Source: a candidate division WOR-3 bacterium (lineage in GTDB: Bacteria; Hydrothermota; Tepidihabitantia; Tepidihabitantales; CAIPLT01). From it: a stretch of DNA of 46,637 nucleotides. Under the pieces are notes generated by a model that saw only the letters and a list, made by a program, of their open reading frames with translations, was not told where the DNA came from and searched no databases. Both the position numbers and the translations under genes were made by a program. Positions 7,432 through 30,815 of this stretch are shown one piece after another (position 1 is the first letter of the stretch; every line of letters begins with the position of its first letter). The stretch is taken from contig JBDRUR010000003.1 in the NCBI GenBank assembly GCA_039801485.1, forward strand, positions 1 through 46,637. Direction: 5' to 3'.

Positions 7432-9533
7432 AGAAAGTCGAACTGGAGATTAACCAACGACGGCTGTCGCTTGAGACCGGACTTTATGCTCGACAGGCAT
7501 CGGGCAGTGTTTTGGTTCGGTATGGCGATACCGTTGTGTTAGTTAGTGTTGTTTATAATAAACAGTTACAACCGAGCCAGGATTTTTTACCGCTAACAGT
7601 TGATTATCGCGAACCGACTTATGCCGCTGGTAAGATTCCTGGTGGTTTTTTTAAACGCGAGGGCAAGCCTCGCGACAAAGAGATTTTGGTTTCAAGATTG
7701 ATGGACCGGCCATTACGGCCATTATTTCCCAAACAATACCGATATGAAACGCAGATTGTAGGTTCGTTACTTTCGAGTGATTTAGAAAACGAAGGTGACT
7801 TTTTGGGCATTATTGGTGCATCATCGGCGTTGTTAATTTCAGAAATCCCATTTAGCATGCCGATTGGTGCGGTTCGGGTTGCAAAGATTGATAATAATTT
7901 TGTTATTAATCCGTTATTATCGGAACAAGATAAAGCGACATTAAACATGATTGTCTGTGGTACCAAGGATTCAATTGTGATGCTGGAAGGCGGTGCCAAA
8001 GAAGTGAGCAACGAGGATTTTATTGCGGCAATCGAATTCGCCCAAAGTGAAATCGTCAAGATAATTGAATTACAAGAACAACTCGCAGCAGTTGCTGGGA
8101 AACCAAAATTACAATTAGATGAATTAATTTCTCCAGAACAAGAAAATAAAGAAAAGGAAATCGCAAAAGTTGTTACCGAAAAAGCACATGATTTGATTGT
8201 CGATGCCAACAATATCAAGGATAAGCAAGAACGCAATGAAACCATTAATGAGATCATTAATCAAGTAGTTAACGAATTAAAACCAAACTATCCTGATTGT
8301 GAGAGTATCGTGATGGGTATAATTGACGAGTTGATTCGTGCCGATATGCGAAGACGGATAATTGAGACTAATACTCGATTGGATGGTCGAACACCAAATG
8401 AAATTCGCCCAATTAGTTGTGCAATTGGGATATTGCCCAGAACCCATGGGTCAGCGATCTTTACTCGAGGTCAAACTCAATGTTTAGCGGTTACAACTTT
8501 GGGTACTAAATCTGATGAACAAATCGTTGAAGATATCGAACGCCAAGAGACTAAGTCGTTTATGCTCCATTATAACTTTCCGGGTTTTGCAACTGGTGAA
8601 GTGAAACCGATGCGTGGACCAAGCCGAAGAGAAATTGGACACGGCGCATTGGCTGAAAGAGCATTAGAAGCAGTAATACCAAAAGAGGAAAGTTTTCCTT
8701 ATACTATCAGAGTAGTTGCCGATGTTTTGGAATCAAATGGTTCGTCATCGATGGCGACAGTATGTAGTGCGTCATTATCATTAATGGATGCGGGCGTACC
8801 AATTAAAAATGCGGTTGCTGGCATTGCCATGGGACTTATTAAAGAAAATGACCGCTATGTTTTACTCTCGGATATTATCGGTGCCGAAGACCATTATGGT
8901 GATATGGATTTTAAGATTGCCGGTACCAAAAATGGTATTACCGCGGTTCAATTAGACCTAAAAATAACCGGGGTGCCAATCGCAATATTAAAACAAGCAG
9001 TACAACAGGCAAATGAAATTAGGCAAGAAATTCTTGGCATCATGGCCAAGACAATTGAATCGCCGCGTTCTAGCATTTCCCAATATGCGCCGAAAATCGT
9101 TGCCTTTAAGATAAAAAAAGATAAGATTGGCGATTTAATCGGACCCGGGGGCAAAGTTATCAGAAGAATTTTAGAAGAGACCGGGGCTGAAATTGATATT
9201 GATGACGATGGCGAAGTGACAATTTCGGCACCAACTGATGAGCAATTAGCCAAAGCCAGAGCACGAGTGCTTGAGATTACTGAAGAAGTTGAGGTCGGCA
9301 AAATTTATACGGGTGTAGTTAAAAGAATTAGTAATTTTGGTGCATTTGTCGAGATTTTGCCCGGGAAAGAAGGTCTTGTTCACATTTCTCAATTGGCAAA
9401 ACACCGAGTCAGAAATGTTTCAGATGTTGTCAAAGTCGGCGATAAAATAAGAGTAAAAGTGACCGAAATTGATGATATGGGTCGAATTAATCTCTCAAAG
9501 CGCAAAGCGGAGACAAATAGCAGTTCTACTTAA
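7428..9533 (+). CDS. pnp: Polyribonucleotide nucleotidyltransferase
   Basis: Two RNase PH domains ([29 protein letters not shown]), KH (IGPGGK) and S1 domains. Confidence 0.99.
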
Positions 9534-9593
9534 TGAACCGTCAAATCAGCAATTACTGCAATTTTTTAAATTAGGGCTTTTCGTGAAGTAATC

Positions 9594-10886
9594 ATGGCAA
9601 ATATTCAGGTAATTAAAATTAACCCATTTTTTACTGTCGTTACCGAAGAGATGGGCTATCTTTCATCGGCATCATTTGGCATTTTCTTTGCGCATGGCAG
9701 TCGATATGAAGATAAAGAAAACCAAGGTATTTGTCATTTAATCGAACACATGCTATTTAAAGGGACAAAGAGTAAAACTGCTCAACAAATTGCTGAAACT
9801 GCCGAATCACTTGGAGCACTGCTGGATGGCTTTACATCGAAAGAATTTTGCGGCATATATTGTCGTTATCTTGCTGATAATTTTGATAAAATTTTAGATT
9901 TGATTGGTGAGATAATCTCTTCACCACGTTTTGATGAATCTGACCTTGAAAAAGAGAAGAATGTAATTGAACAAGAAATTACTGAAACACTCGAAGACCC
10001 GAGGGAACATGTTTTTACTTTGTTATATGAAGCATTATTTCCTAATCATCCATTATCTTTTCCGGTTGCCGGCACAGTCGAAACGGTCCGGGCAATAACC
10101 AAAGAGCAACTGGTTGATTATTGGCATAATCGATTATTACCGTCAAAGTTATGTGTTTCGGCCGCTGGGAAAATTAATCATGGTAAGCTAATTGAACGAT
10201 TAATGAGTAATACTCATTTAAAATTTCCCAATAAACCGCAAGATTACCTAAAAGCGACAATTCAAAATGAACGAACATATATTTTACAAAATCGGCAAGA
10301 TTTATCTCAAATTCATGTTGCCGCTGCTGGTCTTACCTTTTCATATTATGATGAACGACGGTATGCACTATCGGTTTTAGATAATATTCTTGGTGGTTCA
10401 ATGAGTTCAAGATTTTTTCAGCGCTTACGAGAAAAAGAAGGATTAGTTTATACAATTTCAACATTTTATAACCTATATTCTGATGTCGGCCTTTTTGGTG
10501 ATTATTATATTACCGATGCCCGAAATTATTCCAAAGTAGTAAAGTTTGGTATTGAAGAAGTGTTGAAATTAAAAGAACGTGGAATTACTAAAGATGAGTT
10601 GCAAAGAGCAGTAAATTTTTGTAAAGGGATGTTAGCATTAGAATTAGAAAATCCAATGTCCAGAATGATGCGTAATGCCCGTAATTGTCTGCTATTAGAT
10701 AAAATAATTTCGATTGAAGAAGTAATGTCAGCTTACGACCGATTAACTGTTGAAGATATTAATAATATCACTAACATTTTAGACCCGAACGTCTATTCGA
10801 TCGCTTTAATTGGACAACAAGTTGAAAATTTAAAAGATATCAAAGAAAGAATTGGAAAGCCAATTAAAGTAATTATAAAGGATTGA
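9594..10886 (+). CDS. M16 (pitrilysin) family zinc peptidase
   Basis: Inverted zincin HLIEHMLFKGT; LGGSMSSRFFQRLRE; common pnp-M16 synteny. Confidence 0.95.
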   Translation: MANIQVIKINPFFTVVTEEMGYLSSASFGIFFAHGSRYEDKENQGICHLIEHMLFKGTKSKTAQQIAETAESLGALLDGFTSKEFCGIYCRYLADNFDKILDLIGEIISSPRFDESDLEKEKNVIEQEITETLEDPREHVFTLLYEALFPNHPLSFPVAGTVETVRAITKEQLVDYWHNRLLPSKLCVSAAGKINHGKLIERLMSNTHLKFPNKPQDYLKATIQNERTYILQNRQDLSQIHVAAAGLTFSYYDERRYALSVLDNILGGSMSSRFFQRLREKEGLVYTISTFYNLYSDVGLFGDYYITDARNYSKVVKFGIEEVLKLKERGITKDELQRAVNFCKGMLALELENPMSRMMRNARNCLLLDKIISIEEVMSAYDRLTVEDINNITNILDPNVYSIALIGQQVENLKDIKERIGKPIKVIIKD

Positions 10887-18841: not shown

Positions 18842-19378
18842 ATGAATAAAAGATATCCGGTTATTTTTTTCTGGATTTTTACTGTTTTAATATTGAATAC
18901 CTGTCAGCAGAATATCAATAAAATAGAACTTAGGGAAATTGGTTTTATAATGCCATTACCAACTGGTTGGCAAGTTGATAGTAAAGATAAGACATTATTT
19001 TATCAGCAATTAAAAAAAGATGAGAATTTTGGCTGGATAGATATTTATGAGTTAGCCCCAGGTGAATCGTTAGTCGATTTAGTCGACTCATTAATTGTCG
19101 ATTTGCAAAATTTCCTGCTTGAAGAAAAAGCATCTCTAAGTGAATATGATACACTTGATTTAGTATTTGATTTCAAGGTTTTACAGAAAAAGATAACAAC
19201 AATCAGCAATCGTCCGGCTATCGAATTAATTAGTGAATTTGATGGTATGCTTTACGAAGTTTACATACTCAATGATGATTTGGTAGTTCAAGTCTCATTT
19301 AGGATTTCAAAGGATGATTTTAAGAGTTATGAATCAACTTTACAAAATGTCATCAATAGTATCCAATTTCGGGAATAA
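18842..19378 (+). CDS. Hypothetical exported protein, possibly a lipoprotein with PsbP/Mog1-like fold
   Basis: Signal-like N-terminus ending LNTC; F.MPLPTGW near the N-terminus and a C-terminal VINSIQF pattern reminiscent of PsbP-like proteins. Confidence 0.6.
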   Translation: MNKRYPVIFFWIFTVLILNTCQQNINKIELREIGFIMPLPTGWQVDSKDKTLFYQQLKKDENFGWIDIYELAPGESLVDLVDSLIVDLQNFLLEEKASLSEYDTLDLVFDFKVLQKKITTISNRPAIELISEFDGMLYEVYILNDDLVVQVSFRISKDDFKSYESTLQNVINSIQFRE

Positions 19379-19402
19379 ACAATTATTTTAAATTAATCGT
19401 TT

Positions 19403-21481
19403 ATGGAGTATCTGAGTAAAATAAGAAATATTGGTATTGCTGCCCATATCGATGCTGGCAAAACAACCACTACCGAAAGGATTTTATATTATACCGGTAA
19501 AATTTATCGCATTGGTGAAGTTGACGAAGGATCAGCGACTATGGATTGGATGGAGCAAGAAAAAGAACGGGGCATTACCATTACCGCAGCAGCAACGACC
19601 TGTTTTTGGCGAAATCACCGGATAAATATTATTGATACGCCGGGGCATGTTGATTTTACAATTGAAGTAGAAAGGTCATTAAAGGTATTGGACGGCGCAA
19701 TTGTTGTTTTTTGTGGTGTCGGTGGTGTTGAACCTCAGTCAGAAACAGTCTGGCGACAAGCGGATAAATACCGAGTGCCGAGAATCGCCTTTGTTAATAA
19801 ACTGGATAGAATTGGCGCTGACTTTTTTCGGGTTGTTAAAATGATGGAGGAAAAGTTATCATTAGTGCCTTTACCCATTCAATTACCATTGGGTATCGAA
19901 GATAAATTCGTTGGCGTAATTGATTTGATTTTGGAAAAGGCAATTACTTGGCGAGATGAGACATTAGGAGCTGAATATGAAGTATTTGATATCCCAGCTG
20001 ACTACATAGAATTGGCAAAAGAATATCGTGACAAAATGATTGATACTTTGGCACATTATGATGAGAAAATTTTAGAGAAGTTTCTCGCTGGCGAGATAAT
20101 TACTAGTCAAGATATTTTAACAGCAATTCGTCAAGCAACCTTAGCATTAAAAATTGTGCCGGTATTGTGTGGTAGTGCTTTTAAGAATAAAGGTATTCAG
20201 AAGCTTTTAGATGCAATTGTTGATTTTTTGCCATCACCAACTGAAGTGCCGCCAATTAAAGGGCTTAACCCCAAAACTAACCAAGAAGAAGTAAGATTAG
20301 CAGACCCAAAATTACCATTTTCCGCATTAGTGTTTAAGATCGCTAATGATATCCATCAGGGTTTTCTATCTTATATTAGAGTTTATTCTGGCAAGGTGGA
20401 AAAAGGTAATACGGTTTTGGTTGTGCCAACAATGGAAAAGGTCAGAATAATGAAATTATTATTAATGCATGCGAACCAGAAAGAAGAAGTTGAACGATTA
20501 CAAGCCGGTGAAATTGGCGTAGTTGTTGGTTTGAAAAATATTAAAACTGGTTATACGCTTACTAATTTAATTCATCCGATTGCCTTTGAACCTATTGAGT
20601 TTCCTGACCCGGTCGTTTTTATGTCGGTGGAACCGAAAACTAAAGCCGACGAGACAAAGTTGACATCGGCATTAAAAGCATTAGCGATTGAAGACCCAAC
20701 ATTTCGCGTGAAACAAAATCAAGAGACTGGCGAGACAATTATTTCAGGGATGGGCGAATTGCATCTTGACATTATTGTTGAGCGATTACGAAGAGAGTTT
20801 GGTGTCGAATCGCATGTTGGCAAACCGCAAGTATCATACCGCGAGACAATTACTAAAGAAATGACGGCTGAAGGTCGATTCATTCGTCAAACCGGTGGCC
20901 GAGGTCAATATGGCGTGGTTACTTTAAAGCTACAACCAACAAAATCAGGAGTAAATATTGTTAATGTTATTAAGGAAGGACGAGTACCCAAGGAATTTTT
21001 CCCAGCGATTGAACAGGGCATCAAAGAAAGTGTTGAAACCGGTGTTTTAGCTGGTTATCCAATTACCAATATTGCTGTCGAAATACTTGATGGTAATTAT
21101 CACGAAGTTGATTCGTCAGAGCTTGCTTTTAAAATTGCGGCAACAATGGCATTTCGCGAAGCGTTTTTGAAAGCAAATCCAACCTTTTTAGAACCGATTA
21201 TGGATTTAGAAATTGTTACACCTGATATGTATGTGGGCAATATTATTGCCGACCTAAGTGCCCGTCGTGGCAAAATTGTTAATTTGGAGTCGATTAAGGG
21301 ACATAAAATAATTCACGGTTTGGTTCCATTGTCCGAGACTTTTGGTTATGCTTCTACTTTACGCTCATTAACTCAAGGACGGGCATCGCATTCGATGCAA
21401 TTCTCTCATTATGAGCAAATCCCGGAAGAACTAAAAACCAAACTCTTTCCTTATCTGGCGCAAATTTTAAATCCAACTTAA
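19403..21481 (+). CDS. fusA: Elongation factor G
   Basis: [34 protein letters not shown] and HEVDSS motifs. Confidence 0.98.
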
Positions 21482-25263: not shown

Positions 25264-25325
25264 AAATAATATAATATTATAAACTACAAAAAATTAAAAG
25301 TCATTAGGCGTTTTAGTGTTTAGGT

Positions 25326-25353
25326 AAAAAATTGGGGGACATTTCAGTCCCCC
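25326..25353 (-). terminator. Intrinsic terminator of the 21-aa peptide gene
   Basis: GGGGGAC-TGAAAT-GTCCCCC hairpin followed by AATTTTTT, 2 nt after the tandem TAA TAA. Confidence 0.8.
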
Positions 25354-25358
25354 GGTTA

Positions 25359-25424
25359 TTACTTCTTTTTAGCCTTTTTGGCGGTCTTTTTTGCCGCTGG
25401 CTTTGCGCGTTTCATACACGGCAT
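25359..25424 (-). CDS. 21-aa Lys/Ala-rich basic peptide MPCMKRAKPAAKKTAKKAKKK (histone-H1-tail-like)
   Basis: Absent from the ORF track. AAGGAGG SD 4 nt before the ATG (same spacing as rpsO and rpmB), own promoter, double stop and terminator. Confidence 0.85.
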   Translation of the reverse strand: MPCMKRAKPAAKKTAKKAKKK

Positions 25425-25447
25425 AGCGCCTCCTTTTTTAACGATTT

Positions 25448-25475
25448 AGTTTATCGCAAAAAAGTTTTTTGTCAA
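25448..25475 (-). promoter_or_regulatory. Promoter of the 21-aa peptide gene
   Basis: TTGACA, 16 nt, TAAACT. Confidence 0.75.
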
Positions 25476-25622
25476 GCATTTATTTTAATTTAGTAAGAGC
25501 GTATGCGTCTTGCTTTAAAATATAAAATTTGGTGCCAATTAGTTTACTGCACCTTTTTATTAAAAAGCGAGTCTAAATAAACAGAGAGACATTAAGTCTT
25601 TTATGATACGGTAGAAGTCATG

Positions 25623-25830
25623 CCCCTAATGCATTCGGGGAGTCAAAGTTGGGGGTTGGTTAGATCGGTGAATTAAAAAGAAGTTTGATTTTTGAAGACA
25701 TCGATAATTTGCTCAAAGTCAAAGAGTATCAATCTTTATCAGGGTAATTGTCAAAATTAAAAGCGGAACTACACTCAGCATCGAAGTTGGAATATGGCTC
25801 AGACAGCGATTCGGCATTGAGTTATGGATT
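25623..25830. repeat. Palindrome plus 12-nt phased array element, copy 1
   Basis: CCCCTAATGCATTCGGGG (25623-25640); 12-nt units starting tcag/tcaa/gcgg/tcag/ttgg/tcag/tcgg at 25739-25822. Confidence 0.65.
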
Positions 25831-25874
25831 GGATAAAAGATAAGGACAAGGTTTTGCGTCAAAAAACAAACATC

Positions 25875-25902
25875 TTGACAATAATTAATAAAAGCTTAAA
25901 AT
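25875..25902 (+). promoter_or_regulatory. Promoter upstream of the 26014 gene
   Basis: TTGACA, 16 nt, TAAAAT. Confidence 0.75.
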
Positions 25903-26013
25903 AATTTTATCGAGGAAAATATGCTGTCAATAATTTTTACGTCATTTTTTTTATTAGCGACCGTCAATAAAAAAGTAAACCAAAATATTATGCCAAACTA
26001 AAAGGAGGGAACA

Positions 26014-27525
26014 ATGAAAAAAATAATCGTGTTATTGATAACAATATTTTTAATGGTCAATGCTCAAAGTATTGGTCGAACAATTACTGCTGGTTGGACA
26101 ACCGTTGACTGGCAATTTAGCGGTCCGGTTTACACCCGATGCCGAGTAAATTCGTTGATAAATGGTATTCATATTTGTTGGGTTGGAGATAATGGTCCAA
26201 AATATAACTATTATTCATTTCTAACAAATACATGGAATTGGCCAAATGGAATGAACCCGATTTCGGTCAATGCCAATCTCGGCGGTCTGGATTATGACCC
26301 GATTAACGGTTCTGCTGAAATTAGTCTGTTAACAGCAAGCGGACCTTGTATTGCCAAAGACCAACAGGCTGGTGCTGGTGTTTTTGAATATTGTTATGGT
26401 CCAGCTGGTTATGGTATCGGTCCGATTGGCACAACAAATAATCAGGCAATTCATATTGCAATGAATGGTTATTATAGCCGTATTCAACCTTGGTGTAATT
26501 GGATGCCACCGATTGTTATTATAACTGGCGACTACACTGGATATAATATCGCAACCTCAAAAATGTCGAATAAAGTATTGATACTATGGATTTCTCCTAC
26601 GGTTTCCGGTCAGGACCAATTGTTCTTTAGTATATCAAATGATAATGGCAACACTTGGGGCGCAGCACAATTGCCATTTCCGCCTTCGGTTTATTTGGTT
26701 CCATCTTATGCATCACTGTTTGCAATGTTTGATAATCAGGACAATTTACATATCGTCGCTTCAGTTTCTGATACAGCTTACGCAATACCTTGTGAAATCT
26801 GGCATTATTGCCCACTAAATAATCCACAATGGACTTTGGTTCATTATTATAATGCACAAACGTTAAATGCACCGGTTGGATATAATGCGGTCTTTGCAAC
26901 TCGACCATCTATTATTCAGGACCCAACAACCGGTTATTTTTATGTTGCTTGGGAACAATTTGATTCCTTGAATTATGAATCGAGTACTAATTTGGCTCGT
27001 GCTGACATATGGGTAGCTGAGTTAAGAAACAATGGACAAACCGTCTATGCCAAAAGAAAGATCACTGAGCCCAATACGACTTCTAAACGATTTCCAATTG
27101 TTGGTGGCGTTTTTGCAGATACATTAGTTGTTAATTATTTAATTGATTCTATTGCTGGATTTTCAATGTATTCACAAGGACGAATAACTAATAATCCGGT
27201 TATTTGTCATTTTGTGCCGATTCCGTTTCAGGCAGCGATTGATGAACAGAAAGATTGTGATCTAACTCAATTATTATTTGATATCGTACCCAATCCGTTT
27301 ACTTCGCAATCGATAGTTAACTTTTCAATACCAATTGCTACTGATATTTCAATTCAAATTTATGATGAGTCAGGTAGAATTATTGAGACTTTAGTTAGCG
27401 AGCATAAACAACCCGGAGTTTATTCTTATACTCTTAACTCATCATCGTTTGCTTCGGGTATCTATTTTTGTGCGCTAAAAGTAAAGGACAAGTTTATCAC
27501 TAAGAAAATTATTAAAGCCAATTAA
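26014..27525 (+). CDS. Secreted beta-rich protein with T9SS type-A/FlgD-like C-terminal sorting domain
   Basis: Sec signal MKKIIVLLITIFLMVNA; Asp-box-like SNDNGNTW; C-terminal PNPF...IYDESGR...SGIYF...KKIIK; strong SD. Confidence 0.88.
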   Translation: MKKIIVLLITIFLMVNAQSIGRTITAGWTTVDWQFSGPVYTRCRVNSLINGIHICWVGDNGPKYNYYSFLTNTWNWPNGMNPISVNANLGGLDYDPINGSAEISLLTASGPCIAKDQQAGAGVFEYCYGPAGYGIGPIGTTNNQAIHIAMNGYYSRIQPWCNWMPPIVIITGDYTGYNIATSKMSNKVLILWISPTVSGQDQLFFSISNDNGNTWGAAQLPFPPSVYLVPSYASLFAMFDNQDNLHIVASVSDTAYAIPCEIWHYCPLNNPQWTLVHYYNAQTLNAPVGYNAVFATRPSIIQDPTTGYFYVAWEQFDSLNYESSTNLARADIWVAELRNNGQTVYAKRKITEPNTTSKRFPIVGGVFADTLVVNYLIDSIAGFSMYSQGRITNNPVICHFVPIPFQAAIDEQKDCDLTQLLFDIVPNPFTSQSIVNFSIPIATDISIQIYDESGRIIETLVSEHKQPGVYSYTLNSSSFASGIYFCALKVKDKFITKKIIKAN

Positions 27526-30131: not shown

Positions 30132-30402
30132 TATACTAAAACTGAAATTATTCTTATCCTTCATCATTACTAATTATGATATTTAATAAAAATAAATTAG
30201 ATAGATAAAACTGGCAAAACGATTCAAACTTTTATTGAAATGGCAGGAATGATTCTTGAAGAAAATAAAAAAATGTGAAACCAAAGAGCCTTAAAAATCG
30301 TCTATATATAATATACTTAAAGAGCGGAAATTTATTAATTGGGGTCTAAAAACAACCATCCACTTTAATCATAAATCATATGAAGATACTGCTCTGGGCA
30401 TA

Positions 30403-30646
30403 CCCCGAATGCATTCTGGGAATGGGGTTCAGGCTCAGTTAAAATTTTAGTTTTAGACGCAGAACCCATTTCAGAATCGTGCTATAAGTCACACATAGCC
30501 AAAGACTAAGAATATTGGTCAGTATGATTGTTAGCCAGTGGGGGAGTAAGGTTTTCGGCAAGGTAACCAGCAAGGTGTTTAGCAAGGTGGTGGGCATTGA
30601 ACAGAGTATCAGACTAAGGAAGGGGGTTAGGATGGGATTTGGCAAA
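30403..30646. repeat. Palindrome plus 12-nt phased array element, copy 2
   Basis: CCCCGAATGCATTCTGGG (30403-30420); AG or GG at 18 of 19 positions spaced exactly 12 nt from 30425 to 30641. Confidence 0.85.
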
Positions 30647-30815
30647 AAATGCGTGATTAACAAGTTGCGCCCGCTTTTACTTATTCTCAATTTCCATCGC
30701 CAAATAACATTTTGTTAATAACTTAACGACAGAAATTATGTAATCTGATTGATAATCATAAAGCCGGAGTTTAGCAATATTGACGACATCTCGCTTTTTA
30801 ATTATTATATTGATT

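Follow-up and report, generated by a model that had tools for sequence, protein, structure and literature searches.

The window, by which we mean the whole 46,637-nucleotide stretch of DNA analysed here, is contig C3 of a 1.5-Mb source assembly (G000) that comprises 115 contigs, has 37% G+C and is 91% complete; no 16S rRNA was found in this assembly. Two gene-free gaps of the window hold related elements. One gap (25264-26013) is bordered by mfd (minus strand) and by a gene for a type IX secretion substrate, and the other (30132-30779) precedes a glycosyltransferase gene. Both elements lie on the plus strand and begin with a box of two short blocks. In copy 1 this box (25548-25576) is degenerate, with TGCAC at 25548-25552, a 17-nt spacer at 25553-25569 and AGTCTAA at 25570-25576; in copy 2 (30276-30305) it consists of TGAAAC (30276-30281), a 17-nt spacer and CGTCTAT (30299-30305). 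Further downstream is a head, at 25619-25642 in copy 1 (CATG, the near-palindrome CCCCTAATGCATTCGGGG at 25623-25640, AG) and at 30399-30422 in copy 2 (CATA, CCCCGAATGCATTCTGGG at 30403-30420, AA). Each head runs directly into an array of 18 units of 12 nt, at 25643-25858 in copy 1 and at 30423-30638 in copy 2.

As the original prediction had it, CCCCTAATGCATTCGGGG and CCCCGAATGCATTCTGGG each differ by one mismatch from the perfect palindrome CCCCGAATGCATTCGGGG, and they are flanked by GTCATG (copy 1) or GGCATA (copy 2) on the 5′ side and by a G-run within 15 nt on the 3′ side. With up to three mismatches allowed, the palindrome matched just these two sites in the window and none in 100 shuffles; it occurs 19 times in G000. 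The accompanying idea that the second G-run serves as an alternative pairing partner found no support, as the helix that would enclose the head is badly conserved and neither strand is favoured by wobble pairs. Over 480 cells, the head had 303 Watson-Crick and 42 G-U pairs on one strand and 303 and 53 on the other (345 vs 356 in total), with the inner stem favouring the minus strand and the outer stem the plus strand. The hairpin itself is poorly kept, its core being non-palindromic in one subfamily and several copies having internal mismatches. RNAalifold retained the outer four palindrome pairs for one strand, while the other strand gave nothing, and the fold z-scores of the head lay between -0.47 and +0.82. 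A second palindrome, rich in AT, lies within the box region. The leaders of one subfamily (C13, C7, C6 and C29) contain a DnaA-box-like nonamer about 35 nt before the head, perfect in C13, which we take to be probably a chance match in AT-rich sequence.

The gap around copy 1 contains other features. Immediately upstream of mfd lies an unannotated ORF of 21 codons, MPCMKRAKPAAKKTAKKAKKK (25359-25424, minus strand), with a GGAGG ribosome-binding site and a promoter of the form TTGACA-16-TAAACT (25475-25448); the predicted product is a very basic mini-protein. The hairpin beside it (25330-25357) is a putative GC-rich terminator serving both strands. On the other side of the element, a sigma-70 promoter (25875-25902, plus strand; TTGACA-16-TAAAAT, 11/12 consensus) precedes the type IX secretion substrate gene at 26014. 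This near-consensus sequence suggests that classical -35/-10 promoters serve ordinary genes in this organism, in contrast to Bacteroidota proper.

An element family with an array of eighteen units

We searched G000 with a sequence-only covariance model built from 22 copies and spanning -22 nt to +95 nt around the palindrome. The search returned 32 copies (E 1.9e-30 to 9e-12), including copy 2 with 93 bits (30382-30514) and copy 1 with 73 bits (E 1.7e-20; 25604-25733). Four extra copies are broken off by contig ends shortly 3′ of their box, which brings the family to at least 36 members in G000, or about 1% of a reduced 1.5-Mb genome. The copies share a two-block box, a leader of 46-97 nt, a single near-palindromic head and 18 units of 12 nt, and measure about 330-450 nt overall. 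They can be aligned without gaps from 22 nt 5′ of the palindrome through unit 18. The elements had been proposed to form a dispersed family conserved in architecture but not in sequence. The first part of this proposal was borne out by the 32 copies, the four cut ones and one clear relative in another genus, but the second was not, since the copies align; copy 1 is just the most diverged among them.

The family is intergenic, as no ORF of at least 100 aa overlaps any of the 32 copies. Relative to the plus sense of the element, the gene upstream is divergent in 19 copies, co-directional in 11 and missing in two; on the downstream side, 14 copies have a co-directional and 10 a convergent gene, and in eight the gene is missing. 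Placement that is always intergenic, and in either orientation to the neighbours, is expected for stand-alone genes. The flanking genes are of all kinds, and no gene is common to the flanks of the G000 copies or to those of three arrays in the relative G006. Several G000 copies lie close to contig ends and some form near-identical pairs. The genome also contains REP-like inverted repeats of the GTCATTGCGAG... type, at C44:~8870-10270 and C66:~54-850 and in the flanks of C88, C45, C54 and C8; two IS110-family transposase genes, 91% identical, are found inside these repeats about 200 nt past array ends.

The register and number of the units are identical throughout the family: all 31 full copies have 18 units, and the resemblance between copies ends after unit 18. 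Indels are nearly absent, with a 1-nt slip in two copies, around units 16-18. The original prediction tied the palindrome to 12-nt phasing, and indeed all 31 heads with downstream sequence lead into an array in the same register; the 32nd head (C89) is followed by a contig end after 4.75 units. The seven consecutive units noticed initially at 25739-25822 are real and belong to the longer array of 18 units (25643-25858), and the weak phasing noticed at 25641-25738 corresponds to units 1-8, which are off-motif in every copy.

The motif T.AG.AT occupies unit positions 1, 3, 4, 6 and 7 and was scored out of 90 over the 18 units. The unit profile reads T (59%), N, A (78%), G (88%), N, A (68%), T (58%), N, R (85%), N, N, N. 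The mean pairwise difference is 0.13 at G4, 0.23 at A3, 0.35 at A6 and 0.42-0.43 at T7 and T1, and it is 0.50-0.59 at the other unit positions. Constraint acts on a nucleotide motif. In addition, each unit has its own consensus according to its position in the array, and units 6-7 are near-invariant yet off-motif. Copy 2 scored 65/90. The score of copy 1, 55/90, is the lowest of the 31 full copies (the others score 57-71); its phasing, which could have been at chance level, is nevertheless beyond chance, as the best phase of 2000 shuffles scored 34.3 on average (sd 2.3, maximum 44). AG alone at the phased position, found in 5/18 units of copy 1, was not significant (P=0.11, 2000 dinucleotide shuffles).

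About half of the free positions differ between copies, so the conserved length is not explained by a lack of time to diverge. Exact length and register appear, instead, to be kept by selection in each copy, which suggests that the elements do something that the cell needs. The repeats are all head-to-tail, and the plus strand of the array contains 27% G and 14% C. Folding of the array was neither more nor less structured than that of random genome windows (z -0.46 vs -0.41). The minus strand of unit 7 contains a boxA-like octamer, which we take to be expected by chance given the number of motifs tried.

A contig from the X2 run, which derives from a closely related strain and shares 95-99% identity with the window to either side of the difference, shows that copy 1 is subject to turnover. 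In this contig the segment 25496-25847 is swapped for 63 other letters (joint 25495 to 25848), and the box, the head and units 1-17 are lost with it. The swapped segment fits exactly between two outward-facing -35 elements, TTGACA at 25475 (minus strand) and at 25875 (plus strand), and has neither terminal inverted repeats nor target duplications. A weak box, the weakest array and absence from a near-identical strain together suggest that copy 1 is a dispensable, decaying member of the family. Copy 2 and the greater part of copy 1 lie outside the contigs of three runs, which is neutral as to expression.

The upstream box, an ECF-type sigma gene and occurrence in relatives

Alignment of 31 upstream regions (160 nt before the head) gave the box consensus TGAAAC(CTTTT), 16-17 nt, [C/A]GTCTAT. 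The first block is an exact TGAAAC in 19 of the 31 copies. GTCTA of the second block is found in 26/31, and the base before it is C in 12 and A in 14. The spacer measures 17 nt in 26/31 copies and 16 nt in 5/31, and its sequence differs between subfamilies. Two conserved blocks, constrained spacing and a free spacer are the behaviour of a bipartite promoter, and the box, which the original prediction does not mention, offers the best indication of the nature of the element. A sigma-70 reading of the box, for which about 17 of the 32 copies offered -35 matches that were only weak, gave way to one based on extracytoplasmic-function (ECF) sigma factors. Block 1 also resembles half a parS site, presumably by chance, given the number of motifs tried. 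The available text of a study of ECF promoters (PMC5758882) describes AAC in the -35, CGT, CGTA or CGTC in the -10, the form 'tGAAACnTTTt' and spacers of 14-17 bp. Compared with the consensus given there, the box has the AAC-containing -35, the CGT(C/A) -10 and the 14-17 bp spacer of ECF (group 4) promoters; the weak point of the match is that the -10 block reads AGTC, not CGTC, in 14/31 copies.

We derived a two-block matrix from the box alignment and applied it to G000 and to reversed and locally shuffled versions of the genome. Matches of at least 16 bits numbered 36 in G000, 6 in the reversed and 4 in the shuffled genome, and matches of at least 20 bits numbered 29, 0 and 0, respectively. 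By site, 27 matches fall at known copies, 4 at end-cut copies and 1 before a sigma gene. The last, a match of 25.3 bits at C64:837 on the minus strand, lies about 170 nt upstream of, and on the same strand as, an ECF-type sigma gene (C64:20-649) that has Sigma70_r2 and r4_2 domains and is one of three ECF-type sigma genes in G000. Its own promoter is usual for an ECF sigma gene, according to the same partial source (PMC5758882). The box before the C64 gene is thus the arrangement expected of an autoregulated ECF sigma, and, because such genes are usually autoregulated, the C64 sigma is the natural candidate driver of the family.

The leader of the C64 sigma gene (C64:~800-837 region) contains two G-runs and no array. 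The gene 3′ of the sigma gene is lost at the contig end, and no anti-sigma is visible there. At another locus with a box (L128; C24:~19300-19700, minus strand), a 20.8-bit match at 19700 precedes a different GC hairpin (GGGGGCG..CGCTCCCCC) and some six units phased at 12 nt. The locus, which is too short to call, may represent a distant or degraded relative whose head differs.

Among 30 genomes, the closest relatives of the C64 sigma (38-44% identity) are just those in G006, G012, G022 and G016; the rest are at paralogue level (33% or less). The genes adjoining the C64 sigma and its relatives are mutually unrelated. The family model matched one of 60 relatives at E≤0.01. This genome, G006, belongs to another genus and contains a copy with the same head consensus minus the inner palindrome, followed by 17-18 units in the same register; two more arrays in G006 carry other heads. 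Its sigma gene has a weaker box match about 250 nt upstream, and no box match was found at its arrays. G012 and G016 have the sigma relative and no array matches, and G022 has a six-unit run adjoining a tRNA that is too short to call. The co-occurrence of sigma and array across these genomes is suggestive. Weak family-model matches in G001-G004 turned out to be spurious on inspection.

A search with a phased pattern (five repeats of TNAGNA followed by six free letters, with up to two mismatches) also marks the arrays as particular to this lineage: it found 94 matches in G000, against none for its backwards version as control, and 6 in G006. Across 270 other genomes of this phylum no genome had more than 7, and most of those matches are tandem repeats of another kind that look coding. 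The control pattern itself had 19-61 matches in G056, G223, G221 and G032, genomes of the same taxonomic order, which points to other abundant 12-nt-periodic repeats with a different motif in these genomes. A 25-nt head pattern with up to three mismatches had no match in 40 relatives, the exact degenerate head pattern matched no stretch of a metagenome collection, and plasmid and phage collections contained no match to the element.

Candidate functions of the elements

The reading that we favour, while giving it a little less than an even chance, is that the family is a regulon of RNAs of about 300 nt that act as phased docking scaffolds for an oligomeric protein. Each element would form a transcription unit of its own that yields a non-coding RNA of some 275-325 nt, on the plus strand in the window; both transcription and its strand are read from the promoter motif. 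An ECF-type sigma, most likely that encoded at C64, would start transcription at TGAAAC-N16/17-[C/A]GTCTA, and the RNA would carry, in this order, an A-rich leader, the GC-clamped near-palindromic head and 18 copies of the 7-nt motif U.AG.AU at 12-nt pitch. The head may nucleate assembly, with the phased motifs lining up an oligomeric RNA-binding protein at one subunit every 12 nt. Each RNA could thereby function as a ruler-like scaffold or as a sponge, and the C64 sigma would switch on at least 36 such genes together. A pitch this rigid, a constant count of units and the rarity of indels argue for a partner of fixed geometry. Against the reading as RNA, there is no terminator conserved behind unit 18, since only 15/30 copies have a T-run of at least five within 80 nt, and a set of 36 paralogous sponge RNAs would be far beyond any system that we know of.

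As regards protein partners, neither Hfq nor CsrA (PF02599) was found in the 91%-complete G000 assembly. One RRM protein is encoded in G000 (C22:15568-15780), and no test links either this protein or Rho to the arrays. A more specific scheme would have one ECF sigma with a regulon of approximately itself and at least 36 ruler RNAs, on which 18 subunits, or three hexamers, are built or sequestered when the sigma is released; we consider this doubtful. If true, it would represent a stress-triggered ribonucleoprotein of a kind undescribed in bacteria. If the promoter reading is right, this would be a sigma factor whose chief output is a multi-copy RNA family, and the first natural RNA in the form of a strictly periodic array with a fixed number of sites.

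Pairing in the near-palindromic head has no covariation support and favours no strand, and would also suit an element that acts as double-stranded DNA. In that case a dimer would bind the palindrome or palindromes and a DNA-binding protein would polymerise along the eighteen 12-bp direct repeats, like the adaptor-centromere filaments of plasmids but at dispersed sites, with a role, for example, in nucleoid organisation or in silencing or insulating the flanking promoters. The AT-rich palindrome in the box region and the random orientation to neighbours would fit such a role, as would the location of the elements between outward-facing sigma-70-type promoters of their neighbours, exact for the variable segment of copy 1. 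We nevertheless regard it as unlikely: a box that is ECF-like in form, spacing and sequence and recurs before a sigma gene would be superfluous for a pure binding array, neither in G000 nor in G006 does a DNA-binding gene recur beside the elements, the head-to-tail repeats are strongly strand-asymmetric, and at a pitch of 12 bp the sites do not lie on one face of B-DNA. The same asymmetry can be read from the minus strand, where the array would be the rut site of a cis-acting Rho terminator or insulator, the head its pause hairpin and the T-run with the AT-rich box its release zone. That strand has 27% C vs 14% G, with a phased C in 88% of units; it also conforms to the rut definition of RhoTermPredict in the available text of PMC6407284 (78 nt, C>G, C every 11-13 nt, then a hairpin), with the hairpin-like head and a T-run downstream. 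A T-run of at least five follows the head on the minus strand in 28/31 copies vs a background of 26%, and its distance from the head is conserved (17 nt in 15 copies, 37-41 nt in 9). The two copies that were folded gave a long irregular hairpin stopping 3 nt short of U6, minus-strand folding is weaker than that of random windows (mean -34.7 vs -42.8 kcal/mol), and Rho itself is present in 20/20 relatives searched. However, the upstream gene on the minus strand, which a terminator should follow co-directionally, is co-directional in only 10/24 copies and divergent in 14/24, and the Rho RNA-binding domain was not found in the 91%-complete G000 assembly. Moreover, Rho accepts a spacing of 11-13 nt and requires about 60-90 nt, as far as the accessible part of PMC12360218 describes it, and strict register, an exact count of 18 and unit-specific conservation would be left unexplained, as would the promoter-like box, both in the elements and before the sigma gene. 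Rho-dependent termination is thus quite improbable as the function of the elements.

It is more improbable still that the elements are simply non-autonomous, MITE-like mobile DNA that spread recently and whose conserved features serve mobilisation rather than the host. Such DNA would account for the presence and absence of copy 1 between near-identical strains, the lineage-specific expansion seen with the phased pattern, the near-identical pairs and the copies that lie near, or in four cases are cut by, contig ends. But the variable segment lacks terminal inverted repeats and target duplications, and no reverse transcriptase was found in G000. The HUH/RAYT partner suggested in the original prediction did not materialise either, as no Y1/HUH transposase (PF01797) was found in the 91%-complete assembly; the IS110 genes belong to the other, REP-like repeat some 200 nt away. 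Divergence at about half of the free positions, with almost no indels, also argues for selection on each resident copy. Mobility of this kind is compatible with, and not opposed to, the RNA-scaffold explanation. Hardly credible, finally, is a coding function, in which the minus strand would specify small hydrophobic proteins of four-residue repeats (hydrophobic-Leu-x-x). The minus frame NTN-CTN-ANN-NYN is open across the array in 23/23 copies examined and varies most at its third positions (2, 5 and 8), but the motif precludes stops in that frame, which makes openness automatic. Codon use and codon constraint do not resemble those of a gene: the Leu codon CTN occupies 88% of the units vs 38% in 591 long ORFs of G000, radical second-position changes (21%) exceed first-position changes (12%), and no periodicity by codon is seen across unit positions 9-12 (0.50, 0.55, 0.51 and 0.51). 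Most copies have no start codon at the beginning of the array, one subfamily has an in-frame TAA in the place of a TGG in another, and the G006 copy contains two in-frame stops within the array. The elements are non-coding, and we rejected a small protein-coding gene on all these grounds.

Comparison with known systems

The elements cannot be assigned to any known family of RNAs or class of repeats, nor does a known protein fit them, and the question that they pose is what binds every 12 nt, eighteen times. In Rfam, a tRNA was the sole hit in the window at the gathering threshold; the 750-nt gap gave chance-level matches at E up to 10, four copy loci gave none at E up to 1, and no score for the element came near a gathering threshold. 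Similar in general outline to the proposed RNA scaffold are CsrB and RsmZ, RNAs of ~350 nt that sequester CsrA dimers at about 18-22 GGA-containing sites. The shared features are a non-coding RNA of a few hundred nucleotides (predicted here), many short, similar, single-stranded motifs, a regulated promoter of its own and paralogous copies. The differences lie in the exact 12-nt pitch, in place of irregular hairpin loops, in 36 copies vs 2-8, and in the ECF-type promoter. A GGA core is not conserved, with G at unit position 5 in only 23% of units, and the CsrA gene was not found in G000, both of which speak against a CsrA sponge.

The centromeres tubC and parC consist of tandem direct repeats of 10-12 bp under a filament of the adaptor proteins TubR and ParR. 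They resemble the present arrays in the 12-bp direct-repeat pitch and the many units, presumably with one protein subunit or dimer per unit. They are, however, single loci beside partition genes on plasmids or phages, whereas here there are 36 dispersed chromosomal copies with a promoter-like box. With 32-36 dispersed copies, diverse neighbours and no plasmid or phage match, the elements are not a centromere array of the TubR-tubC type.

Rut sites as defined in the available text of PMC6407284 share with the minus strand the excess of C over G, the C every 12 nt and the hairpin downstream; they differ in length (216 nt here vs 78 nt) and in their loose rather than strict spacing, and, unlike them, the elements have unit-specific conservation and an orientation unrelated to the upstream genes. 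TIGR arrays, in the part of PMC12045711 available, have 36-nt units with two alternating repeats of 8-12 nt and 9-nt spacers, near-identical within a locus, and a Nop-domain gene adjacent. The elements are like TIGR-Tas in combining very short repeats with short variable stretches and in one-sided transcription (predicted here), but have one degenerate 7-nt motif with five free letters, a single 12-nt period and no conserved neighbour gene; as far as that description goes, unit structure and neighbour gene thus set them apart from TIGR-Tas. Within the titles and abstract beginnings of the papers listed by a search on 12-nt periodicity and dodecamer repeats, no bacterial intergenic arrays appear and nothing like this element is described.

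REP and BIME sequences are, like the elements, dispersed intergenic imperfect palindromes in many copies. The elements are ten times longer (~330-450 nt) and have a single head with a phased array; with no PF01797 protein found in G000, they are not REP/BIME sequences served by a RAYT.

A different likeness is to the binding sites of TRAP and HutP, in which phased NAG triplets in RNA are wrapped around a protein ring. These sites are leaders of one operon with a pitch of about 5-7 nt, whereas the elements have a pitch of 12 nt, 18 repeats and the longer motif T.AG.AT, and are multi-copy and stand-alone. What the two would have in common is a NAG-triplet core at fixed pitch along single-stranded RNA, and a fixed repeat count would suit a closed oligomer.
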